Part shown: positions 1 through 12,292 of the stretch, piece by piece
Position numbering within the stretch: the stretch's first letter is position 1
Layout of the letters: each line of letters begins with the position of its first letter
Virus genome (UHGV): UHGV-0198005
Origin: a virus
Reading direction: 5' to 3' (one strand)
DNA length: 12,292 nt
Position numbers and translations under genes: made by a program
The notes under the pieces: generated by a model
Databases searched by the model: none
What the model saw: the letters and a program-made list of their open reading frames with translations, nothing else
Told to the model about the DNA's origin: nothing

Positions 1-1242
1 ATGGCGAGAAAAACACACCCATTAACCACAGTGCAGATCAAAGCAGCCAGACCAGCGCAAAAGGAGTACACCCTGCAGGACGGCGGAGGGCTTTTTCTCC
101 TGGTCAAACCGTCTGGATCAAAACTCTGGAGATTTTCCTACTACCGACCATCGGACAAAAAAAGAATATTGCTGAGTTTTGGATCGCTTGAAGATGTTTC
201 CCTGGCTGATGCCAGAAAACGCCGTAGCGAGTACAGGACGTTAATCAGTGCCGGAACTGACCCGCAGGACCACGAGAGGCAAAAAAGAGAGACAGAGGCC
301 CGAAGACAAGGGAACACGTTCGAAAATGTGGCGGCGGCATGGTACCAGGTGAAAATCAGCCAGAATCTGGCCCCCAACACGATTAAAGACATCTGGCGTT
401 CGCTGGATAAATATGTATTCCCGTTCATCGGCAACACGCCAATAGATACCCTCACCGCCCGAAGGTTCGTTGAAGTGCTTACACCCATCAAGGAGCGCGG
501 CAACCTGGAAACACTCAAGCGGGTTTTACAGCGCGTTAATGAGGTAATGGATTACGCCGCCAACAGTGGGCTGATTGATGCCAATCCGGCTATGAATGTG
601 CGTAAGGCGTTTCCCTCACCTGTAAAAAAACATATGCCAACAATCCGCCCCGAACAGCTGCCGGAGCTTATGCAGGCTTTATCAGTATCGGCAACAGAAC
701 GGCAGACCAGATTACTGATTGAATGGCAGTTACTGACCGTAACCCGTCCCGCCGAAGCGTCATCAACGCGGTGGGATGAAATCAACCTGGACGCGAAGCA
801 ATGGACGATACCTGCCGGACGCATGAAGATGCGCAGGGATCACGTTATCCCGCTTTCCGGTCAGGCTATGGCGGTGCTGGAGGCCATGAAACCAATCAGC
901 CACCACCGCAATTACGTTTTCCCAAGTCTGAAAGACCCACAGCAGCCGATGAACAGCCAGACAGCTAACGCAGCATTGCGGCGTATGGGATTCGCTGGCG
1001 TGCTGGTGTCTCATGGATTACGCGCCATATTCAGCACAGCAGCGAACGAGGAAGGATTCGAGCCGGACGTAATAGAGGCGGCACTTGCCCACGTCGACAC
1101 CAACGAAGTTAGACGGGCATACAACCGGAGCAACTACATAGAAAAACGCATCGTGCTGATGCGCTGGTGGGGCGAATTTGTCGAGGCTGCGGCGACGGGC
1201 GTAACCCTCGCCAGTGGTAAAAGGGGTATCCGAGCCGTGTAG
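1..1242 (+). CDS. int: Site-specific tyrosine recombinase, P4-type integrase
   Basis: 413-aa ORF. N-terminus MARKTHPLT...GSKLWRFSYYRP and C-terminal VSHGLR...AHVD...RRAYNRSNY align by eye with recalled E. coli CP4-57 IntA / P4 Int, including the R..H..R..Y catalytic region. Position at island edge. Confidence 0.93.
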   Translation: MARKTHPLTTVQIKAARPAQKEYTLQDGGGLFLLVKPSGSKLWRFSYYRPSDKKRILLSFGSLEDVSLADARKRRSEYRTLISAGTDPQDHERQKRETEARRQGNTFENVAAAWYQVKISQNLAPNTIKDIWRSLDKYVFPFIGNTPIDTLTARRFVEVLTPIKERGNLETLKRVLQRVNEVMDYAANSGLIDANPAMNVRKAFPSPVKKHMPTIRPEQLPELMQALSVSATERQTRLLIEWQLLTVTRPAEASSTRWDEINLDAKQWTIPAGRMKMRRDHVIPLSGQAMAVLEAMKPISHHRNYVFPSLKDPQQPMNSQTANAALRRMGFAGVLVSHGLRAIFSTAANEEGFEPDVIEAALAHVDTNEVRRAYNRSNYIEKRIVLMRWWGEFVEAAATGVTLASGKRGIRAV

Positions 1243-1944: not shown

Positions 1945-1970
1945 CGGGTATCACAGATATGACAAACACG

Positions 1971-2003
1971 AAAAAAGCGGCCCCGATATGGAGCCGCCTT
2001 TCT
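1971..2003. terminator. Bidirectional intrinsic terminator (GCGGC-N11-GCCGC), strongest for minus-strand transcripts (A6 on the plus strand = T6 on minus)
   Basis: Hairpin 1977-1997 flanked by AAAAAA upstream and CTTTCT downstream, located between convergent alpA (+) and the minus-strand operon ending at 2093. Confidence 0.5.
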
Positions 2004-2092
2004 GAACAATTAACCCGCTGCGCCTTATGTGTATATGATCCCAAACATAAGCACGGGGATGATAGCCGCTATCAGGCTGGTGGGCAATGCAA

Positions 2093-2281
2093 TCAGTCTG
2101 GTTCAGTTCGTTGCCATACCTGCAATGAGCGCTTTTCCCTGTATTCTTTAAGGAATTGCTCAAGGGCAAAAGCACATGGCGCGAATCTTTCTGATTCATG
2201 CTCTATCTTTCTGCGCCGTCTTTTCCGTGCCGGTGATAATGTTTTGGTCAATTCTTTATCGGTCATTGTGTTGTCCTGCAT
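2093..2281 (-). CDS. Hypothetical small basic protein (62 aa), second gene of the minus-strand regulator operon
   Basis: ORF lies 42 bp downstream of the RHH-like gene on the same strand and is followed by the terminator at ~1971-1997. Arginine-rich stretch SPARKRRRRK. No clear ribosome-binding site. Confidence 0.35.
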   Translation of the reverse strand: MQDNTMTDKELTKTLSPARKRRRRKIEHESERFAPCAFALEQFLKEYREKRSLQVWQRTEPD

Positions 2282-2323
2282 AGCAATGCGCCGTAATACC
2301 TTACACCACGGCGCTGATGGTGA

Positions 2324-2629
2324 TTACTCTGGTTCTTTGGTCTTGCGGCGCTGGAGTTCTTCACGTGCGACAGTGACGAGCTGCCCGATCTCCTCGGCGG
2401 CTTTGATTCCGAGTTTTTCCACCTGCGCCAGTGCATCGTGCGAAGAAATCAGGGGGTTTTCTCCGCTTCCTTCTGCCTGGCGGCGGGCGATTTCACCGCG
2501 CATGGCGGTTACTATGAATCCGGCGTTGCTTTCACCGTCCAGTTTTACGGATTCCATGCCTTCAATAACATCATGCGGGATCCGAGCTGTCAGTGATTGT
2601 GATTTTGCGTTTTTTGAACCTGTAGCCAT
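2324..2629 (-). CDS. Ribbon-helix-helix-like DNA-binding protein, candidate island repressor/regulator
   Basis: ATG at 2629 preceded by GAGAGGA; the ORF track's upstream TTG at 2644 is less likely. N-terminal SQSLTARIPHDVIEGMESVKLDG fits the RHH beta-strand/helix pattern (inference from motif, not searched). Divergent from the rightward operon across an operator-rich region. Confidence 0.6.
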   Translation of the reverse strand: MATGSKNAKSQSLTARIPHDVIEGMESVKLDGESNAGFIVTAMRGEIARRQAEGSGENPLISSHDALAQVEKLGIKAAEEIGQLVTVAREELQRRKTKEPE

Positions 2630-2644
2630 CTGTAATCCTCTCAA

Positions 2645-2825
2645 TGAAAGTGTAAGACAATATACACATAAAAAGTCTTACATAAAAGCATTGACATGTA
2701 AGCCACCTATAAATAAAGTTACTTACACCTTGTTAATGCAAGGTGCAGAAACGACGAAACCCCGCACTGTAGGAGCAGTAACGGGGCTTCTAACCACCAA
2801 CGATAGCAAGATTATCGAGGCAGCT
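2645..2825. promoter_or_regulatory. Divergent control region: two similar operators built from TGTAAG half-sites (O1 2651-2682, O2 2697-2728), sigma70-like promoter (TTGACA 2691-2696, 17 bp, TAAAGT 2714-2719) reading rightward, plus IR CACCTTG-N6-CAAGGTG
   Basis: Half-sites and promoter hexamers read directly in the sequence; the arrangement is classic for a repressor-controlled lytic-type operon. Confidence 0.5.
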
Positions 2826-3026
2826 ATGAGAAATTATACCATACACCCGCAAGGGCGGGACTCGTACAACCTGAATAAATACATCTGGCGTTTTATCGCC
2901 CTGAGCACGGCACAACCGCGCGTGATTACCATCGAGGCCACCAGCGAACAGGAAGCGCGTCAGCAATCTCCGGCTGGCTGCGTGATGGTATTTGCTGCCC
3001 GTATTCGTCAGGGGGTAGGCTTATGA
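2826..3026 (+). CDS. Hypothetical protein (66 aa), first gene of the rightward operon
   Basis: GAGG 5 nt upstream of the ATG at 2826; stop overlaps the next start (ATGA). It is the only protein-like part of the otherwise spurious 355-aa ORF 1959-3026. Confidence 0.45.
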   Translation: MRNYTIHPQGRDSYNLNKYIWRFIALSTAQPRVITIEATSEQEARQQSPAGCVMVFAARIRQGVGL

Positions 3027-3253
3027 GCCAGGAAATCACACTACAACAGGCAGCAGAACGCGCCCACCAAATCGAAGTTATTTGCGCACTGGCAGAGGAT
3101 TACCCTGGCATGATGACCGACAGCGAATCAGGGGCAATCATCGGCTTACTTAAACGCCTTAGCGGTGAGGTCTGCGTATTCCTGAGCGATGAACAGGAAA
3201 GAAGAACGCTTATTTCTAACGAAAAAAAATGCGGAGGGGTACATGTGCAATAA
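3023..3253 (+). CDS. Hypothetical protein (76 aa)
   Basis: ORF translationally coupled to the preceding ORF (ATGA overlap); helical, acidic composition. Confidence 0.55.
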   Translation: MSQEITLQQAAERAHQIEVICALAEDYPGMMTDSESGAIIGLLKRLSGEVCVFLSDEQERRTLISNEKKCGGVHVQ

Positions 3254-3464
3254 AACCACACCGGACGCAGCAGCCGCCGCGCTCACTACGCTGATGCACG
3301 CGCTTATCGATATTGAATGCACTGCAGAGCTTGCGCAGGGAGAAGAACAGAAAGACCGGACACAGTTCGCCCTGGAATGTATCCGATACATCGCAACACG
3401 GTCGCTGAATGACGCTAAAAATATTCTTGTTGCTGATTGTGAAAATGGGGGGGGTTATGCGTGA
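3243..3464 (+). CDS. Hypothetical protein (73 aa; start chosen at the ATG with a GGAGGGG ribosome-binding site)
   Basis: GGAGGGG 5 nt upstream of ATG 3243. The ORF track's longer version (3189) starts inside the previous gene. Confidence 0.5.
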   Translation: MCNKTTPDAAAAALTTLMHALIDIECTAELAQGEEQKDRTQFALECIRYIATRSLNDAKNILVADCENGGGYA

Positions 3465-3678
3465 TGATCGTTTTAATTCCCTGAAACAGGAATTTTCCGG
3501 CGTTCCTGATGATGCGGCTGATGCGCTTTCGTCAATGCCAGAACTTATTAGAGCGGCTTTTTTCTTACTTTCCACGAGAGAATATAAATCAACGGGGCTT
3601 GATGTACTGAATATCGCCGCCGATTATGCTGATTTCGTGACAGAGGTTATTTTAAGAAAAACGACGGACGGGGATTAA
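3457..3678 (+). CDS. Hypothetical protein (73 aa)
   Basis: ATG 3457 overlaps the previous stop (ATGCGTGA) and is preceded by a G-rich Shine-Dalgarno-like run. The ORF track's upstream start (3409) lies inside the previous gene. Confidence 0.5.
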   Translation: MRDDRFNSLKQEFSGVPDDAADALSSMPELIRAAFFLLSTREYKSTGLDVLNIAADYADFVTEVILRKTTDGD

Positions 3679-3918: not shown

Positions 3919-4218
3919 ATGAAACTTAAATATTCTGGCTTAACTGCCAGTGGCAACACTCACCCTAAATTTACGCGCGGCGATATTTACCGCGACCAGT
4001 ACGGCGGCACGGTAATGATTAAGGGCGTGGCGGGACGGTGCGTAACTTACCGCCGTGAAGGTTACGAATATGATTGCGTGATGCCTGTTTATCAGTTCCG
4101 GCGTGATTTTTCTCTGGTACAGACCGCGCCGCATAACGTGCCCACCAGCAACGCCAGGGCACGGGCAAACATCCAGAAGCTGAAAACCATGATTAACGGA
4201 TTCAGGGGTAAAAAATGA
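3919..4218 (+). CDS. Hypothetical protein (99 aa)
   Basis: ORF with GGAG upstream; stop overlaps the primase start (ATGA). Confidence 0.6.
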   Translation: MKLKYSGLTASGNTHPKFTRGDIYRDQYGGTVMIKGVAGRCVTYRREGYEYDCVMPVYQFRRDFSLVQTAPHNVPTSNARARANIQKLKTMINGFRGKK

Positions 4219-5969
4219 AACTGGCACCGAACGTAAAACAGCAGTCACGCGGCATAAAACACAAAGGAACAGAAGTCATTATTTTTGCGGGTAGTGATGC
4301 CTGGGCACACGCGAAACAATGGCAGGAACATGATGCGCGTATGGCCGGAGATAATGAGCCTCCTGTGTGGCTTGGGGAGCAGCAGTTATCAGAACTGGAT
4401 AAGCTGCAAATTGTGCCGGAAGGCAGAAAATCCGTGCGCATATTCAGGGCCGGATATCTTGCGCCAGTAATGATAAAGGCGATTGGTCAGAAGCTGGCGG
4501 CGGCAGGCGTACAGGATGCAAATTTTTACCCTGATGGTATGCACGGTCAGAAGGTGGAGAACTGGCGCGAATATCTGGCCCGTGAGCGCCAGAATCTTTC
4601 TGATGGTCTGGTCATTGAGCTTCCGGTAAAGCAAAAGGCGCAACTTTCGCAGATGGCGGACAGTGAGCGCGCGCAGCTGCTTGCCGATCGCTTTGATGGC
4701 GTTTGCGTACATCCTGAAAGTGAAATCGTTCACGTATGGCGCGGCGGGGTATGGTGTCCGGTCAGCACAATGGAACTTAGCCGCGAAATGGTGGCGATCT
4801 ATTCAGAGCACAGGGCCACTTTCAGCAAGCGCGTAATCAATAACGCCGTGGAAGCGTTAAAAGTTATTGCCGAACCAATGGGCGAGCCGTCCGGCGATTT
4901 GCTGCCGTTCGCCAATGGTGCGCTTGACCTGAAAACGGGGGAATTTTCCCCGCACACGCCGGAGAACTGGATCACCACGCACAACGGCATTGAGTACACG
5001 CCACCAGCACCAGGGGAGAACATCCGCGATAACGCGCCAAACTTTCATAAATGGCTTGAGCACGCAGCCGGAAAAGACCCGCGCAAGATGATGCGTATAT
5101 GTGCCGCGCTGTACATGATTATGGCGAACCGGTACGACTGGCAGATGTTTATTGAGGCCACCGGAGACGGCGGGAGCGGTAAAAGTACATTCACACACAT
5201 AGCCAGCCTTCTGGCAGGGAAACAAAACACGGTAAGCGCTGAAATGACATCGCTTGATGATGCTGGTGGGCGTGCGCAGGTTGTCGGGAGTCGTCTTATC
5301 GTCCTGGCAGACCAGCCGAAATATACAGGCGAAGGAACGGGCATCAAGAAAATCACGGGCGGCGACCCCGTGGAAATTAACCCGAAATATGAAAAGCGTT
5401 TTACGGCGGTAATCAGGGCGGTGGTGCTGGCAACCAATAACAATCCGATGATATTCACCGAACGGGCCGGAGGTGTGGCACGTCGTCGGGTGATATTCCG
5501 GTTCGATAACATCGTAAGCGAGGCAGAAAAAGACAGGGAGCTACCGGAAAAGATCGCGGCTGAAATCCCTGTCATTATCCGCCGCTTGCTGGCGAACTTT
5601 GCCGACCCTGAAAAGGCACGGGCTTTACTCATTGAACAGCGTGACGGTGATGAAGCACTGGCAATAAAGCAACAGACGGATCCGGTTATTGAGTTTTGCC
5701 AGTTCCTGAATTTTCTGGAGGAAGCACGCGGCCTGATGATGGGCGGCGGTGGCGATTCAGTGAAGTACACGACCAGAAACAGCCTTTACCGCGTCTATCT
5801 GGCGTTTATGGCGTACGCAGGCAGGAGCAAACCGCTAAACGTAAATGACTTTGGCAAGGCTATGAAGCCAGCCGCGAAAGTTTACGGACATGAATATATT
5901 ACGCGGAAAGTTAAAGGAGTAACGCAGACTAACGCAATAACAACAGACGATTGCGACGCGTTTTTATAA
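4215..5969 (+). CDS. Replication initiator: primase/helicase with phage-plasmid primase P4-family (D5_N-like) region and P-loop NTPase domain
   Basis: 584-aa ORF. Walker A GDGGSGKST (EATGDGGSGKSTFTHIASLLAG) and a putative Walker B LIVLAD; upstream NGALDLKTGEFSPHTPENWIT resembles the D5_N/primase-C motif. Immediately followed by an iteron array. Confidence 0.85.
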   Translation: MKLAPNVKQQSRGIKHKGTEVIIFAGSDAWAHAKQWQEHDARMAGDNEPPVWLGEQQLSELDKLQIVPEGRKSVRIFRAGYLAPVMIKAIGQKLAAAGVQDANFYPDGMHGQKVENWREYLARERQNLSDGLVIELPVKQKAQLSQMADSERAQLLADRFDGVCVHPESEIVHVWRGGVWCPVSTMELSREMVAIYSEHRATFSKRVINNAVEALKVIAEPMGEPSGDLLPFANGALDLKTGEFSPHTPENWITTHNGIEYTPPAPGENIRDNAPNFHKWLEHAAGKDPRKMMRICAALYMIMANRYDWQMFIEATGDGGSGKSTFTHIASLLAGKQNTVSAEMTSLDDAGGRAQVVGSRLIVLADQPKYTGEGTGIKKITGGDPVEINPKYEKRFTAVIRAVVLATNNNPMIFTERAGGVARRRVIFRFDNIVSEAEKDRELPEKIAAEIPVIIRRLLANFADPEKARALLIEQRDGDEALAIKQQTDPVIEFCQFLNFLEEARGLMMGGGGDSVKYTTRNSLYRVYLAFMAYAGRSKPLNVNDFGKAMKPAAKVYGHEYITRKVKGVTQTNAITTDDCDAFL

Positions 5970-6256: not shown

Positions 6257-6535
6257 ATGCACACTTCAGGGAAATTTAATAAATCACTCAAAAAACGCAG
6301 AGACAGAACAGAACCGAAATATCGCGCGTTAGACATGACAGAGCACGCTTTAAAGGTGGCAATCAGAACGATAGACCGACACGTAGGGGAAGGATACGCG
6401 AAGGAACATCCCGACCTGATAAGCGCATTCATGACCACAGCAGCGGCAAACTTTGCCACGCTGACAGAACGGGAGATTGCCGAAGCGGAACAGGTAACAA
6501 CCATCAACGTTAAAACCGGAGAGGTGGAATCATGA
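6257..6535 (+). CDS. Hypothetical protein (92 aa), co-transcribed with ssb
   Basis: GAGGGGG ribosome-binding site ~11 nt upstream; stop overlaps the ssb start (ATGA). Confidence 0.6.
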   Translation: MHTSGKFNKSLKKRRDRTEPKYRALDMTEHALKVAIRTIDRHVGEGYAKEHPDLISAFMTTAAANFATLTEREIAEAEQVTTINVKTGEVES

Positions 6536-6954
6536 CAGCACAGATAGCCGCTTACGGGCGGCTGGTGGACGACCCGCAGGTAAAACAGACCAGCAAGGGC
6601 ACACCGATGACGCTGGCGCGTATGGCGGTCCCCCTTCCGTGCAGCCAGGCAGATGACGGAACGGCGACGATGTGGTTATCCGTCCTGGCATTTGGCAGAC
6701 AGGCCGAAGCACTGGAAAGGCACCGCAAGGGTGAACTCCTGAGCGTGGCGGGTAACATGCAGATCAGCCAGTGGACTGGGCAGAACGGAGAAACGCGGCA
6801 GGGCTGGCAGGTTATCGCAGACAGTGTAATCAGTGCGCGAACGGCGCGACTGGGCGGCAAAAAAGGTCAACAGGGCCAGGCTACTGACGCGCTGAACAGG
6901 GCAAAACAACAGGCGGGGAATGATGATCCGTACGGGGATAACATACCGTTTTAA
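6532..6954 (+). CDS. ssb: Single-stranded DNA-binding protein (SSB) homolog
   Basis: 140-aa ORF with an OB-fold-like N-terminal region, a Gly/Gln-rich linker and an acidic C-terminal tip DDPYGDNIPF, matching the conserved SSB tail (D-D-D-I-P-F in E. coli SSB, recalled). Confidence 0.8.
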   Translation: MTAQIAAYGRLVDDPQVKQTSKGTPMTLARMAVPLPCSQADDGTATMWLSVLAFGRQAEALERHRKGELLSVAGNMQISQWTGQNGETRQGWQVIADSVISARTARLGGKKGQQGQATDALNRAKQQAGNDDPYGDNIPF

Positions 6955-6968
6955 GCGACGAGTGACAG

Positions 6969-6992
6969 AAGCCGGAGCAATCCGGCTTTTTT
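6969..6992 (+). terminator. Rho-independent terminator (AAGCCGGA-GCAA-TCCGGCTT + T6)
   Basis: 8-bp stem, tetraloop and T-run 15 bp after the ssb stop. Confidence 0.65.
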
Positions 6993-7166
6993 ACGGGTCC
7001 TCCTGGCGGGGTGGGCCTGAACACGGGGCGGGAGGCGCGGAAAAAAGCGCATTTTTGTGATTTTATCGTCATCATCATCATGAGCGTAATTTATTGTTTT
7101 TAATTGTTTTGATGCAAAAAAGATGATGGTTGTGGTTAATTTTCGTTCGACATCTTTGCAGGCAGA

Positions 7167-7208
7167 TAAAAAAGCCCGATAAGGTCAGAGGTGGCTTATC
7201 GGGCTTTT
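7167..7208. terminator. Terminator-like hairpin (AGCCCGATAAG-N11-CTTATCGGGCT) flanked by an A-run and a T-run
   Basis: Perfect 11-bp stem; A6 upstream and T4 downstream make it potentially bidirectional. No adjacent CDS explains it. Confidence 0.45.
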
Positions 7209-7285
7209 GCATATGAGGCTTTTTGGTGCACTGACACACATGATCGGGATAATCATTTCATAATTTGCAACGCAACTCAACATCA

Positions 7286-7334
7286 TTGCACAAAATGCAA
7301 TCATGATTATAATCAGAGCTGGATGAACATCCAG
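7286..7334 (+). promoter_or_regulatory. Sigma70-like promoter (TTGCAC, 16 bp, TATAAT) with perfect palindrome CTGGATG-AA-CATCCAG at the predicted start site; candidate regulated head-operon promoter
   Basis: -35 at 7286-7291, -10 at 7308-7313, palindrome at 7319-7334, ribosome-binding site AAAGAGGAA at 7353-7361 before ATG 7370. Confidence 0.5.
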
Positions 7335-7369
7335 TTATGATTTTTTAAGTCAAAGAGGAATTTCTTACT

Positions 7370-7576
7370 ATGGCTGAAGAGAAAAAAGGCGGTGTTTCGG
7401 TGTACATAAGCCCCGACATCGTGAAGGCGCTCAAGGAACGCCACCAGCAGAACGTAAAAGCAGGCATTGCGGCAGGACTTGATCCGCTGGCGATGGTTGA
7501 GCCGTCAACAGGCTGGCAGGTACGCTCCTATTTACGCGCGGCGCTGGGCATAAATCAGACTCATGGGGGTGAATAA
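7370..7576 (+). CDS. Hypothetical protein (68 aa), first gene of the head operon; possibly a small RHH-like regulator or scaffold/size-determination factor
   Basis: Strong ribosome-binding site; stop overlaps the capsid gene start (TAATG). VSVYISPDIVKALKERH resembles an RHH strand-helix pattern (weak inference). Confidence 0.55.
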   Translation: MAEEKKGGVSVYISPDIVKALKERHQQNVKAGIAAGLDPLAMVEPSTGWQVRSYLRAALGINQTHGGE

Positions 7577-8631
7577 TGGCAGTCAAAGCAATGGCACTTA
7601 ACACACACCAGCTTTTCGCGTACCTGAATCGCGAGGATATTGCGGAATTTAAATTTAGTCCGCTGTTTACCGCGCTGTTTTTCCCGAACGTGGCGACATT
7701 CAACACGCAAAACATCATGCTGGATACCCTGGACATTGAAGAAGTCACCATGTCGGCGTTTTGTTCGCCTATGGTGGGTAGCCAGGTTCAGCGCGATAAA
7801 GGGTACGAAACCAGCACGATTAAACCTGGCTACATGAAGCCAAAGCACGAAATCGATCCAACGAAAACCATCATGCGCATGGCTGGAGAAGATCCGGCAC
7901 AGCTTAACGACCCTACCTATCGCCGTATGCGCCTGATTACTGGCAATATGCGCCGCCAGATAAACGCCATAAAAGCGCGCGTGGAATGGCTGGCGGTAAA
8001 TGCGGTAACGACCGGAAAAAACATCATTGAGGGCGAAGGCATAGAGCGCTATGAAATCGACTGGAAGATACCGGAAAAAAACATCATAGAGCAGGCCGAC
8101 GGGAAAAAATGGTCAGAGCAGGACAAAGAAACCCACGATCCAATCTATGATATCGAACTATACGCCGATCAGGCTGGTTGCCCCGCAAACGTCATGATTA
8201 TGGGCGTTGAGGTATGGCGAACGTTACGCAGCTTTAAAAAATTCCGTGAGCTGTACGATCTTTCCCGTGGTTCAGAGTCCGCCGCAGAGCTGGCCTGTAA
8301 AAACCTGGGCGAAGTGGTGAGCTTTAAAGGCTATCTGGGCGATATTGCCCTTATCGTCTATTCCGGCAAATACACTGACAGCGACGGCACAGAAAAATAT
8401 TTCCTTGATCCTGATTTGCTGGTCCTGGGCAACACCAACAACAAAGGGCTGGTGGCCTATGGTGCGATTATGGATCAGGAAGCGGTAAGAACAGGCGCAA
8501 CGCAAAACATGTACTACCCGAAAAACTGGATTGAGGACGGCGATCCGGCGATTGAGTACGTGCAGACGCACAGCGCACCGCAGCCGGTTCCGGCAGATAT
8601 TCGCAAATTTGTTACCGTCAAAATTGCTTAA
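7576..8631 (+). CDS. Major capsid protein, lambda gpE-like (HK97 fold)
   Basis: 351-aa ORF aligning along its length with recalled lambda gpE: FKFSPLFTALFF / FKFDPLFLRLFF; PGYMKPKHEIDP / PGYVKPKHEVNP; EDPAQLNDPTYRRMR / EDPQNLADPAYRRRR; RGSESAAELACKNLGEVVSFKGYLGDIALIVYSGKY / RGSNSELETAVKDLGKAVSYKGMYGDVAIVVYSGQY; YYPKNW..GDPA...SAP. Confidence 0.92.
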   Translation: MAVKAMALNTHQLFAYLNREDIAEFKFSPLFTALFFPNVATFNTQNIMLDTLDIEEVTMSAFCSPMVGSQVQRDKGYETSTIKPGYMKPKHEIDPTKTIMRMAGEDPAQLNDPTYRRMRLITGNMRRQINAIKARVEWLAVNAVTTGKNIIEGEGIERYEIDWKIPEKNIIEQADGKKWSEQDKETHDPIYDIELYADQAGCPANVMIMGVEVWRTLRSFKKFRELYDLSRGSESAAELACKNLGEVVSFKGYLGDIALIVYSGKYTDSDGTEKYFLDPDLLVLGNTNNKGLVAYGAIMDQEAVRTGATQNMYYPKNWIEDGDPAIEYVQTHSAPQPVPADIRKFVTVKIA

Positions 8632-8642
8632 CGGGGGATTCT

Positions 8643-8978
8643 ATGGACACTCCATACATTGAGTTATTTGCAGGCAGTCAGCAGGTATCCACGACGCTGG
8701 TACATTTTGCCGCTGATGCTGGCGTTATTCAGGAATTTACCCCGCTGATGCTGGCGGACAATGGCGAGTTTAAGCCGTGGGATGGTCAGGAATCTGGCAA
8801 GGCTGTTTATCTGACTTCGTACCTCGTGGACACGTCAAAGCAGAAATCAGCACAGTGTTACAAGACGGGGATATTCAATATTGCCGCCGTTAACTGGCCT
8901 GAGAGCGTCGACACCGATGCGAAAAAATGCGCCGCCTTTGCGGGTTCTGGCGTATCCGTTCAGCCGCTGGCCCGATAA
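8643..8978 (+). CDS. Head decoration protein, lambda gpD-like
   Basis: 111-aa ORF with TPLML, WDG, YKTGIFN...WPE and KKCAAFAGSGVSV matching recalled lambda gpD (TPLML..WDG..YKSGTF..WPE..KKRTAFAGTAISIV); similar length (~110 aa). Confidence 0.85.
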   Translation: MDTPYIELFAGSQQVSTTLVHFAADAGVIQEFTPLMLADNGEFKPWDGQESGKAVYLTSYLVDTSKQKSAQCYKTGIFNIAAVNWPESVDTDAKKCAAFAGSGVSVQPLAR

Positions 8979-8990
8979 GCAGGGGGAACG

Positions 8991-9404
8991 ATGGCAACGA
9001 ATGAAAGCATCATGGCGCTACCGCTGGCGAGTAAATTTAAAGCCGAAGCGCGGGCAATGGCTGACAGAGGTTTATCAACCTACGAGGCCGTATATCAACT
9101 CAACAAACTGGAAGAGCAGGACAAGCCGCGCGCTGATGCGATTATGGCGCTTCATGAGCATAAAGACTATCAGCCGCTGTTGCGTGCAATGGCAAACGTG
9201 CCTTGTATCGATGTTGATACGGCTAAAAACATCCTGAACATGACCATAGAGCAGGAACGCCCGAAGGTTGCACCAGAGCTTACCGCAGCCTTTGAAAACT
9301 TTATGGACATGCACAGCCCACAAACCGTATCAGCTGGCATGGCATACGATGGCAGAAACCCAGGCGATGACGGCGACATCGATCGCATACTGAAAACCAT
9401 CTGA
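8991..9404 (+). CDS. Hypothetical protein (137 aa), last gene of the head operon; lambda gpFI-like position and size but no visible similarity
   Basis: ORF with GGGGGA ribosome-binding site, followed by a terminator and the cos site. Functional guess is positional only. Confidence 0.6.
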   Translation: MATNESIMALPLASKFKAEARAMADRGLSTYEAVYQLNKLEEQDKPRADAIMALHEHKDYQPLLRAMANVPCIDVDTAKNILNMTIEQERPKVAPELTAAFENFMDMHSPQTVSAGMAYDGRNPGDDGDIDRILKTI

Positions 9405-9409
9405 GACAA

Positions 9410-9431
9410 GGCCGGAGAAATCCGGCTTTTT
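9410..9431 (+). terminator. Rho-independent terminator (GCCGGA-GAAA-TCCGGC + T6) abutting cosQ
   Basis: Stem-loop plus T-run directly after the 8991-9404 stop. Confidence 0.65.
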
Positions 9432-9432
9432 T

Positions 9433-9609
9433 GCGGGTCCTTCCTGGAATTATGGCCCGTTACGGGGCGGCGACCTCGCGGTTTTTCGCTATTTATGAGC
9501 TTTTTCAGGGGGGTGGTGGTGGTTTTGTTGTTTGCTCTATCTTTATGAATGAAAAGGGAAAGATGCAAACAATACACCAACCTGAAGCAGTAATTAAGTT
9601 GGTGTATTA
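9433..9609 (+). other. Lambda-type cohesive end site cos1 (cosQ-cosN-cosB); cosN 12-nt overhang GGGCGGCGACCT at 9465-9476; cosB diverged from lambda
   Basis: TTACGGGGCGGCGACCTCGCGGTTTTTCGCTATTTATGA matches the recalled lambda cos junction (ACGGGGCGGCGACCTCGCGGGTTTTCGCTATTTATGAAAA) almost base for base, then diverges. Lies directly upstream of the Nu1-like gene as in lambda. Confidence 0.8.
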
Positions 9610-10152
9610 ATGAAATCGCACCTGATGAACAAAAAAAACATGGCGAAAAGCTGCCGTGTAAGTGCGACAGCGTTCGACAAGTGGGGAGTGACTCCCGTTG
9701 AACGTAAAGGCCGTGAGGCGTTTTACGATGTTGCCAGCGTGATAGACAATAGGGTTAACAATGCAATTAGCCAGCTTACAAACGACAAAGGCGATATTGA
9801 TGATGATGAACTCTTACGAGTCAGGATCAGATTACTGACAGCACAGGCGGAGGCGCAGGAACTTAAAAACGAGCGCGATCGCGGTGACGTGATTGATACT
9901 GAGTTTTGCCTGTACGCGCTTTCAAAGCTGGCGAGTCAGATTTCATCAATCATGGACAGCCTCCCGCTTACTATGCAAAGGAGCTTCCCACAGATTACCC
10001 CCGCCATGCTGGATAGGCTTAAAAGGGAAGTGGTTAAAGCCTGTAATGCCAGTGCCAGAGTTGCCGACAACCTCCCACAGATACTGGCTGATTACTTGAA
10101 AGAAACAACCGGAAACGTACCGGAAAAGTTGCTACAGAAGAAAGGCGAGTAA
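9610..10152 (+). CDS. Terminase small subunit homolog, lambda Nu1-like (candidate Rpp-type packaging-redirection protein); true start may be the ATG at 9625
   Basis: LTAQAEAQELKNERDRGDVIDTEFCLYALSKLASQISSIMDSLPLTMQRSFPQ aligns with recalled lambda Nu1 LTRAQADAQELKNARDSAEVVETAFCTFVLSRIAGEIASILDGLPLSVQRRFPE; N-terminus MNKKNMAKS.. parallels Nu1 MEVNKKQLADIF. No large-terminase gene follows. Confidence 0.85.
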   Translation: MKSHLMNKKNMAKSCRVSATAFDKWGVTPVERKGREAFYDVASVIDNRVNNAISQLTNDKGDIDDDELLRVRIRLLTAQAEAQELKNERDRGDVIDTEFCLYALSKLASQISSIMDSLPLTMQRSFPQITPAMLDRLKREVVKACNASARVADNLPQILADYLKETTGNVPEKLLQKKGE

Positions 10153-10159
10153 CAGACGC

Positions 10160-10375
10160 GCAATTATTGAACAAAACTGAGAAACGACATGAAAGCGTCA
10201 TAAATCGCCATTTTAGATGATTACCGTGTCGTTTCTTTTTATTGTGTATCTATTTAAAAACAAATAGTTATGTTCGAGAAGTACCGACATGCTTTTTCCA
10301 GAAAAATTTTCATAAACAGATAAAAACCGCGAGGTCGCCGCCCCGTAACGGGTCCATAATTCCAGGAAGGACCCG
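10160..10375 (-). other. Second lambda-type cos site (cos2) in inverted orientation; cosN at 10332-10343 on the minus strand, with lambda-like cosB elements (R-site-like GAAACGACA / TGTCGTTTC, TTTATGAAAATTTT)
   Basis: Reverse complement of 10322-10375 is CGGGTCCTTCCTGGAATTATGGACCCGTTACGGGGCGGCGACCTCGCGGTTTTT, identical to cos1 apart from one indel. Continuing on the minus strand, TTTATGAAAATTTTTCTGG, CATAACTATTTGTTTTTAAATAGA and AAAGAAACGACAC...TGTCGTTTCTC parallel recalled lambda cosB (R3/I1/R2/R1 region). Confidence 0.7.
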
Positions 10376-11360: not shown

Positions 11361-12292
11361 GTCCAGACTACACCCGCCTGAGTTGTGCTGCTTTCTTCAC
11401 GGGAGAAACGGCTGTCGATACCAAGCGTTAGCCCCGTCAATGTTTGCTCAAAGCCAGCGCCTGCATCAGTGGTCACGTTGTTGCGGCTGTTAATTGCCGA
11501 ACTCCACATCGCCGCCCTTTACGCTACCAAGACGCTCACGCACGGTGTCCAGTTCTGCATCAAATACCAGCGGTTGTGCTGCCGCCATATTCAGCACATC
11601 CGTGGTTGAAGGGGGCATTTGTGCGCGATTCTCTGCGAGACTCCAGCTATGGTTGCCATTATCCAGCAAGGTATATTCATACGTACTGATATCAACAACG
11701 CCTCCGGCATTGCCCAACGTAAATGCCGCATCACCGCGCCCGTTGTTACCAGTGTAAGGTTATCTCCTGCTGCCGGCCTGGCACCGGTGTCCGTCACGAA
11801 TATTTTGAAATCACCTGTTGCTTTAACCTCCAGTAGCCCTCCCTTTTCTATAACGGCAAAGACGGCAATCCCATCTTTTTCAACAATTAAGCGCCCGCCT
11901 TTAATCGTGGGATCATTCGCCGCGCCATAAACCTGTAGCACTCCATTATTGATCGTAGTCTGGTTTACCGCGCCACCCATTTGAACAATTTGATAACCAT
12001 CATTTAATACTGAGTATTCTGCGGTGCCATTTATTTCAATGTACTGATATCCCCCGTTAATTTCAGTATTACTACTTACACCAAATTCTTATATATGCTG
12101 TTCTCCGCCAGGATTGATTTTCGTATTATTGGCGGCCCTACAAACCAGCTGGATATCTTTTTCCAGGACAACACCATCAACTGTCTCACCATACTCAACA
12201 GTTGATGCCAATGCTATGGGCGAATATAACGCTGTAGCCACCAGAACAGATATTGCGGAACGACAAAGAGAAACAGAACCAGATTGGTGCAT
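11361..12292 (-). pseudogene. Decayed autotransporter-type adhesin gene remnant (signal peptide + passenger fragment + linker + last ~44 aa of the beta-barrel), with an in-frame stop and at least two frameshifts; may continue beyond the window edge
   Basis: Minus-strand translation from 12292 gives a signal-peptide-like N-terminus (MHQSGSVSLCRSAISVLVATALYSPIALA), an in-frame TAA at 12089-12091, passenger-like repeats (NNGVLQVYGAANDPTIKGG...), a frame change near 11740-11760 into ...GGVVDISTYEYTLLDNGNHSWSL...TVRERLG..., a stop at 11490, then a third frame ending ...AGVVWTF* (aromatic C-terminus typical of outer-membrane barrels) at ~11361. Confidence 0.45.

Follow-up and report, generated by a model that had tools for sequence, protein, structure and literature searches.

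The 12,292-nucleotide virus genome UHGV-0198005 (the window, meaning the whole stretch of DNA that was analysed) corresponds to a phage-inducible chromosomal island (PICI) of Escherichia coli of the EcCICFT073 type, 12.3 kb long, in which a four-gene unit for head-protein homologues is preceded by a promoter with a palindrome over its predicted start site. We consider it probable that this is a sigma-70 promoter and that the palindrome serves as an operator for the host repressor LexA (SOS box). LexA binding, the transcription start and SOS inducibility are all predicted here from the sequence. An earlier note on the same DNA had described a near-consensus promoter followed directly by a perfect palindrome, and had suggested that a dimeric repressor would keep this promoter silent, or an activator would gate it, until helper infection. 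The positions of the elements discussed below are collected in Table 1.

The palindrome ahead of the head genes scores as a LexA box

The E. coli LexA box has the consensus TACTG(TA)5CAGTA, with CTG-N10-CAG as its invariant frame (PMC6590174). The palindrome, CTGGATGAACATCCAG, has the 16-bp CTG-N10-CAG core of gamma-proteobacterial LexA boxes, and the predicted box around it reads AGCTGGATGAACATCCAGTT. Both 6-bp arms of the core, CTGGAT-N4-ATCCAG, are identical to those in the box of ruvA, CGCTGGATATCTATCCAGCA; CTGGAT also begins the cho box, CACTGGATAGATAACCAGCA. The ruvA and cho boxes are part of a published LexA-box motif list (Table 4 of PMC3009722), and ruvAB is included in a table of SOS genes (PMC6590174).

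For scoring we built a heterology-index matrix of our own from the 18 E. coli boxes of that motif list; its values, lower for better matches, are not identical to published indices. With this matrix AGCTGGATGAACATCCAGTT had an index of 8.1–8.7, which lies within the range of the known boxes. Scored by leave-one-out, the 18 boxes ranged from 0.6 to 12.6 (with polB at 16.98 when the matrix was symmetrised), including 8.5 for ruvA, 7.9 for cho, 7.8 for uvrD and 11.8 for dinB. The remaining sites in the window scored 13.6 or worse, with the exception of a candidate at 1241–1260 that is described further below. Dinucleotide shuffling of the window (2000 shuffles) produced a site with an index of 8.5 or less in 0.15% of cases; when the 415-bp intergenic region that holds the promoter was shuffled, the figure was 0.005%. 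In tightly LexA-dependent genes the box typically overlaps the start site (PMC8072944). The exact box sequences had no occurrence in the openly searchable literature.

Promoter, start site and leader

The strings named in the earlier note are all in place, with TTGCAC at 7286–7291, the 16-bp spacer AAAATGCAATCATGAT, TATAAT at 7308–7313 and the palindrome at 7319–7334, but several of its descriptions were too strong. ‘Near-consensus’ overstates a promoter in which the −10 matches at six of six positions but the −35 agrees with TTGACA at only three (TTG), and in which the spacer is 16 bp rather than 17. The palindrome is not perfect either: CTGGATGAACATCCAG is built as 7+2+7 around a non-symmetric AA centre, with 14 of its 16 positions symmetric (its reverse complement is CTGGATGTTCATCCAG), and the perfect 16-mer CTGGATGTACATCCAG is present in some relatives. 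Nor does it follow the −10 directly, as 5 bp (CAGAG) intervene. Its placement over the start site is plausible, the +1 being predicted near 7320, about 7 nt past the −10, which puts the 20-bp box at about −4 to +17. The evidence supports a promoter whose predicted start site is spanned by an operator of the dimer type.

The promoter was absent from a consensus promoter scan because its −35 matches TTGACA only in TTG. Furthermore, 34% of dinucleotide shuffles of the window contain the pattern TTGnnn-N16-18-TATAAT one or more times, so the promoter pattern, taken by itself, could be a chance occurrence. Both observations would fit a reading in which there is no functional element here at all, the promoter and palindrome having arisen by chance in an AT-rich spacer and the head genes being expressed by read-through from an AlpA-driven upstream operon. 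We regard this as highly unlikely, given that two strong terminators lie between ssb and the head promoter, that the box is rare in shuffles, and that the −35, −10, box and Shine-Dalgarno sequence are conserved across genera while neighbouring bases vary. Read-through is also at odds with transcriptome data in which c1498–c1501, and not the whole island, were singled out as increased (PMC12890032).

A different possibility is that the palindrome acts at the RNA level, either as a leader hairpin that attenuates or terminates transcription together with the T-run downstream of it, or as a 5′ stem-loop that stabilises the mRNA. A terminator scan did list AGCTGGATGAACATCCAGTT followed by ATGATTTTTT, the full palindrome folds into a hairpin of −9.4 kcal/mol (z = −3.2), and the leader T-run is conserved. 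However, the T-run begins 6 nt past the palindrome (4 nt past the extended stem), with a gap that changes from lineage to lineage, unlike the arrangement in intrinsic terminators, and it persists in a lineage that lacks the hairpin. The hairpin has only three G-C pairs, and the stable G+C-rich stem with an immediate U-tract that marks an intrinsic terminator or attenuator is not found at the palindrome. A transcript from the predicted +1 would lose most of the left arm, leaving −3.2 kcal/mol, no better than shuffles. There is also no covariation in the hairpin: the core pairs are invariant, the score was reached by 181–206 of 500 shuffles, and natural variants (CATACAG) break hairpin pairs. 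An RNA-level role is thus quite unlikely.

The −10 hexamer is itself embedded in a perfect 12-bp palindrome, TGATTATAATCA (7304–7315), so that it reads on both strands. In many relatives this palindrome extends to ATGATTATAATCAT, and ATGATT is repeated at 7338–7343. The 7304–7315 palindrome may be bound by another protein or may supply a weak −10 on the opposite strand.

The promoter and box are conserved across related islands

Relatives were sampled in two ways, by the 68-amino-acid (aa) protein encoded downstream and by the −35/−10 pattern, both of which are independent of the box. Anchoring on the protein yielded 131 loci in E. coli, Salmonella and Pluralibacter islands, whose 160-bp upstream sequences took 75 distinct forms; a LexA-like box with an index of 6.4–10.2 was present in 68 of the 75. 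The Salmonella boxes read GACTGGATGAAAATCCAGTA or GACTGGATAAATATCCAGAT. That of the Pluralibacter gergoviae island, AACTGGATGTTTGTCCAGTT, is intact and lies 12 nt further downstream of the −10. The small proteins of these Salmonella and Pluralibacter islands have 58–68% identity to the 68-aa protein of the window. For the second sample we used the pattern TTGC-N3-AA-N-TGCAA-N6-TTATAATCA, which gave 82 PICI-type matches in IMG/VR; the box stood at the same offset in all but one, in which 1 nt is inserted inside the box. Seven unrelated matches to the pattern (six in GTDB species genomes and one in IMG/VR) had indices above 20; the six GTDB matches, all in unrelated organisms and without a box, served only as negative controls. 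The promoter-plus-box arrangement is conserved across genera, as are TTGC and TATAAT, and the cross-genus cases carry most weight.

Substitutions were analysed in 60 distinct sequences in the same register. CTG, GAT and CAG are invariant in all 60, whereas the 5 bases between the −10 and the box vary more than any other part of the proximal promoter-to-ATG region. The centre of the box varies as well (GAAC, AAAC, GTAC or GTTC, with AAAT, GAAA and GTTT in other genera). A variant that changes ATCCAG to ATACAG (…CATACAG) breaks the dyad, yet it brings the site nearer to the ACAG of the LexA consensus (index 6.4), and a change of AG to AA in the flank before CTG likewise improves the LexA score. 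This variation fits a LexA site better than a site constrained by self-complementarity alone.

A search of GTDB species genomes for the capsid protein gave pattern matches, none of which could be confirmed as a relative. Since blastn against a phage collection returned no match, the promoter and small open reading frame (ORF) are specific to these islands.

Alternative regulators of the palindrome

The earlier note had proposed that the regulator could be the island’s ribbon-helix-helix (RHH) protein, AlpA or a helper product. In this reading the palindrome is the operator of a dimeric island or helper regulator, such as the RHH-like YlcI/YnfO-family protein, and the promoter is held until helper infection. 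A dyad across a start site is indeed a generic repressor architecture, AlpA is the known helper-switched activator of Gram-negative PICIs (PMC6092414, PMC11773190), and the CTGGAT/ATCCAG arms are invariant, as they would be for any sequence-specific dimer. Against this, a LexA-box score as good as that of the palindrome is seen in just 0.15% of window shuffles, and natural variants with a broken dyad match LexA better. No other CTGGAT-N4-ATCCAG occurs in the island, for instance near a regulator gene, even when 2 mismatches are allowed. The YlcI/YnfO-type gene has a distinct repeat of its own, CTTACAY, in four copies at 2650–2728. When the head promoter was compared with the upstream regions of alpA, the main operon, the ORF at 1341 and rpp, the only common motifs were weak 9-mers with one mismatch, and those common to the alpA and head promoters did not fall in the palindrome; AlpA sites can therefore be neither assigned nor excluded. 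None of the palindromic sites of Cra, PurR, TyrR or TrpR is known to fit CTGGAT-N4-ATCCAG. The LexA-box match, the lack of a second copy of the palindrome and the distinct YlcI/YnfO repeat leave the earlier choice of regulators unsupported. Whatever speaks for an island or helper regulator is better explained by LexA, and we judge such a regulator unlikely.

The head genes form a separate transcription unit

The earlier proposal that the head module is an independent transcription unit, cut off from ssb by terminators, was borne out. Two predicted terminators stand before the promoter and a terminator-like hairpin follows the fourth gene, and the unit thus comprises the four genes c1498–c1501. 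The first terminator, after ssb, has a folding energy of −18.6 kcal/mol (z = −4.8, with none of 200 shuffles as good) and six T after its stem. The second looks bidirectional, with an A-run, a stem of 10–14 bp and a T-run (−25.1 kcal/mol, z = −4.8, none of 200 shuffles as good); it lies immediately 5′ of the promoter region and is conserved in related E. coli islands. The hairpin that closes the unit, just before a cos-like repeat, has −14.5 kcal/mol and is followed by TTTTTT; its z of only −1.5 makes it the weakest of these terminators. The unit does not include the terS-like rpp gene, which lies beyond this terminator and the cos site.

In a transcriptome of strain CFT073, c1498–c1501 were singled out as notably increased upon a shift from 23 to 37 °C (PMC12890032). 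This result supports a separately regulated unit and is silent on the SOS response.

In some related islands (loci L002–L005 and L010) a gene for a PerC-family transcriptional regulator lies between ssb, or the primase gene, and the head promoter. The window has no PerC-family gene in this place, only the 415-bp spacer with its two terminators.

A dyad over the −35 and a possible second regulator

The −35 TTGCAC and the first part of the spacer are covered by another dyad, TTGCACAAAATGCAA, of the form TTGCA-N5-TGCAA. A dyad-like site one mismatch from this form, TTTCATAATTTGCAA, lies 30 bp further upstream. The sequence TTGC-N3-AA-N-TGCAA is kept in Salmonella, in Pluralibacter and even in a lineage without the LexA-like box. 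At the upstream site ATTTCAT is invariant in a cross-genus alignment, and there are few variants among the 60 distinct sequences. Both dyads are conserved across genera, the box-less lineage included. Sigma-70 can do without the spacer TGCAA, which makes it likely that a second protein binds the DNA here, and the TTGCA-N5-TGCAA dyads probably bind another regulator besides LexA. The −35 dyad leaves room for the earlier idea of a promoter gated by an activator, at an element other than the palindrome. A sigma-54 reading of TTGCAC-N4-TGCAA was rejected by eye, as position −24 lacks the GG and the spacing of the two elements is 2 nt shorter than in the consensus TGGCAC-N5-TTGCA.

Proposed regulation of the head promoter

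If the palindrome is a LexA operator, a LexA dimer would lie across the predicted start in undamaged cells, from about −4 to +17, and block initiation. Upon DNA damage, activated RecA would lead to self-cleavage of LexA, and the promoter, which we expect to be moderately strong, would fire. The same damage signal induces lambdoid helper prophages, so production of the head proteins would be timed with the lytic cycle of the helper; the lambdoid helper prophages of EcCICFT073 were induced with mitomycin C in published work (PMC6092414). The switch of the head unit would be independent of the AlpA pathway, which governs excision and replication. An index of about 8 (6–7 in many relatives) predicts moderate LexA affinity and some basal leak. 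The LexA-box match implies DNA damage as the trigger, coinciding with helper prophage induction, and the earlier suggestion of helper infection as the trigger is unsupported.

Several points weigh against LexA control. Both half-sites have G, and not the consensus T, at position 4 (CTGG), and an index of about 8 falls in the weaker half of the known boxes. Any sequence-specific dimer that recognises CTGGAT would conserve the arms equally. The sampled sequences are mostly close relatives and cannot be counted as independent instances of conservation. In one lineage (L014, L126 and L139–L142) the promoter architecture is kept, with TAAAAT as the −10, a variant seen only there, but the box is absent and only the left CTG remains. 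This lineage indicates that LexA control would be common for the operon without being universal or obligatory. Finally, if the operon had to be activated by helper infection without an SOS response, a second input would be required.

Island identity and gene content

The window has the int, alpA, D5-type primase, capsid/decoration module, terS-like rpp, cos, tRNA site and size (about 10–12 kb) of an EcCICFT073-type element. A queried 626-bp stretch (6955–7580) has 100% identity to E. coli Nissle 1917, in which the island adjoins a tRNA-Pro gene between yejM and narP, and 932 of 5426 complete E. coli genomes carry pieces of the queried region. A scan of the whole window against Rfam at gathering thresholds found no RNA family match.

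Table 1. Genes and predicted regulatory elements in the window
Feature	Positions	Strand	Details
Integrase (int)	1–1242		stop codon TAG at 1240–1242
ORF, 76 aa	1341–1571		no family match
AlpA-type regulator	1738–1944
YlcI/YnfO-family (RHH-like) protein	2324–2644	−	divergent
Small ORFs			between the YlcI/YnfO-family gene and the primase gene
D5-type primase	4215–5969
SSB (ssb)	6532–6954		followed by a 415-bp gap
Terminator after ssb	6967–6993	+
Second terminator	7163–7215		bidirectional-looking
Upstream dyad-like site	7256–7270	+	TTTCATAATTTGCAA
−35 dyad	7286–7300	+	TTGCACAAAATGCAA
−10 hexamer	7308–7313	+	TATAAT; nearly invariant in 60 distinct sequences
Predicted LexA box	7317–7336		AGCTGGATGAACATCCAGTT; core CTGGATGAACATCCAG at 7319–7334
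Leader T-run	7341–7346	+	conserved even without the palindrome; unconvincing as a terminator tail
Shine-Dalgarno sequence	7354–7359	+	AGAGGA, 10 nt before the ATG at 7370; kept in all lineages
First unit gene, c1498-type	7370–7576	+	68 aa; phrog_3255, unknown function
Major capsid homologue, c1499	7576–8631	+	lambda gpE-type; PF03864, E = 3e-52
Head decoration homologue, c1500	8643–8978	+	lambda gpD-type; PF02924
Fourth unit gene, c1501-type	8991–9404	+	137 aa; phrog_1999, weak match to phrog_53 positions 494–567
Terminator-like hairpin	9408–9432	+
terS-like gene (rpp)	9610–10152

Homologues of the 68-aa protein are always encoded immediately 5′ of the capsid gene. The capsid and decoration genes of the published element are named c1499 and c1500 (PMC6092414); deletion of either did not relieve interference with lambda in that work. 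The c1501-type protein resembles head maturation proteases in their scaffold-like C-terminal part.

On either side of the terS-like rpp gene lies one copy of an inverted duplication of roughly 72 bp (9434–9505 and 10303–10375). Each copy holds a lambda-type cos core (ACGGGGCGGCGACCTCGCGG), which gives two cos-like sites in opposite orientation.

Elsewhere in the island, two overlapping ORFs (3189–3464 and 3409–3678) match the N- and C-terminal halves of phrog_2512 (positions 1–76 and 63–145), which points either to a single gene that a frameshift has split or to programmed frameshifting. A 355-aa ORF listed within 1959–3026 was rejected as a real gene. In this stretch RefSeq has a pseudogene for an Icd-like cell-division inhibitor, with its C-terminus missing, followed by an intact 66-aa Icd-like gene, and the minus-strand YlcI/YnfO gene sits between the two. 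The arrangement suggests that a divergent regulatory cassette entered, or duplicated, the icd-like region. Past the right end of the island, the minus strand of 11591–12292 holds a degraded autotransporter gene. In Nissle 1917 this gene is annotated as frameshifted with an internal stop, and the island there abuts a pseudogenised adhesin locus.

A second LexA-like site and other repeats

A second LexA-like box, AGCTGTACAGAAAACCAGTA, lies at 1241–1260, where it overlaps the stop codon of int. Its index is 7.7–9.6, and it is located about 30 bp upstream of a TATAAT (1290–1295) and upstream of the ORF at 1341–1571. Relatives keep this box as AACTGTACAAAAAACCAGTA or AACTGTACAAAAAGCCAGTA, and islands with other integrases have a different LexA-like sequence in the corresponding position downstream of int (TACTGGTTTTTTATACACTA and variants, with CAC or CAT for CAG). 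Two sites with an index of 10 or less were found together in 0.05% of shuffles.

Between the 1241–1260 box and the TATAAT at 1290 there are four phased repeats with a 10-bp period, GAAAACCAGT, AAAAACTACG, AAAACCATGT and AAAACCGTCG (1250–1289). Upstream of alpA, AAAAACGGTG occurs twice (1633–1642 and 1652–1661), and its first copy overlaps a palindrome, AACGGTGTATACCGTT (1636–1651). The phased repeats and the repeats upstream of alpA could be bent DNA or sites for a regulator, perhaps AlpA. The four CTTACAY repeats at 2650–2728, in full (T/G/A)CTTACA(T/C), form two inverted pairs around the best consensus promoter of the window (TTGACA-17-TAAAGT, 2691–2719), in the interval that separates the divergent YlcI/YnfO-family gene from the main rightward genes. 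They are likely the operators of the YlcI/YnfO-family protein.

A broader and rather doubtful reading is that Gram-negative PICIs sense the host SOS response directly at two LexA boxes, one at the head unit and one downstream of int, with another regulator acting at the −35 dyads. Were this so, the capsid, decoration and scaffold homologues would be made upon DNA damage even without a helper. As their loss affected neither lambda interference nor transfer, they could have a role independent of the helper, such as serving as head-protein decoys that sabotage whichever lambdoid prophage is induced.

Comparison with known systems

In the published account, induction of Gram-negative PICIs proceeds entirely via helper-activated AlpA. 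We found no report of LexA control in Gram-negative PICIs in the literature outside subscription-only papers, and E. coli PICI papers that cite the work on operon I of the SaPIs, pathogenicity islands of Staphylococcus aureus, do not report it for Gram-negative islands. A LexA box on the head promoter is a plausible regulatory link and not a new mechanism. If true, it would give Gram-negative PICIs a direct, helper-independent input from DNA damage, and the logic of SaPI operon I would have been reached by way of unrelated genes and another LexA motif. It would also bear on when the head-protein homologues are made, and on whether antibiotics that induce the SOS response prime the island ahead of the helper. 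EcCICFT073 derivatives have been engineered as delivery and diagnostic vehicles in which payloads replace c1498–c1501 (PMC10460865), and an SOS-regulated promoter ahead of the payload position would matter for the design of such vehicles.

Among individual boxes, those of ruvAB and cho are similar to the predicted box in their CTG-N10-CAG frame, in the unusual G at position 4 and in their index. LexA regulation of ruvAB has been established experimentally. The ruvA box differs in its central bases (ATCT, as against GAAC here) and in its flanks, and ruvAB and cho are DNA-repair genes, whereas the site predicted here precedes head-protein genes of a mobile element.

SOS promoters of prophages and colicins, such as those of the Gifsy dinI homologues (PMC8072944) and the colicin operons, are alike in that a mobile element uses host LexA directly and in that the box overlaps or just follows the −10 or the start site. 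Here, unlike in those systems, the genes encode structural head-protein homologues of a satellite.

The closest functional analogue is SaPI operon I, a LexA-controlled operon for packaging and capsid morphogenesis (Ubeda et al. 2007, as relayed in PMC6092414 and PMC6739421). In both systems a satellite’s morphogenesis or packaging module would have its own promoter under host LexA, though for the present island this is a prediction from sequence only, and LexA control would stand apart from the helper-responsive master switch, which is Stl in SaPIs and AlpA here. The two differ in that SaPI operon I has the Firmicutes LexA motif, whereas the host here is Gram-negative and the motif gamma-proteobacterial. 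They also differ in their genes, with cpm, ptiA or terS in SaPI operon I and unrelated lambda gpE, gpD and scaffold-like homologues here, where the terS-like rpp is outside the unit.

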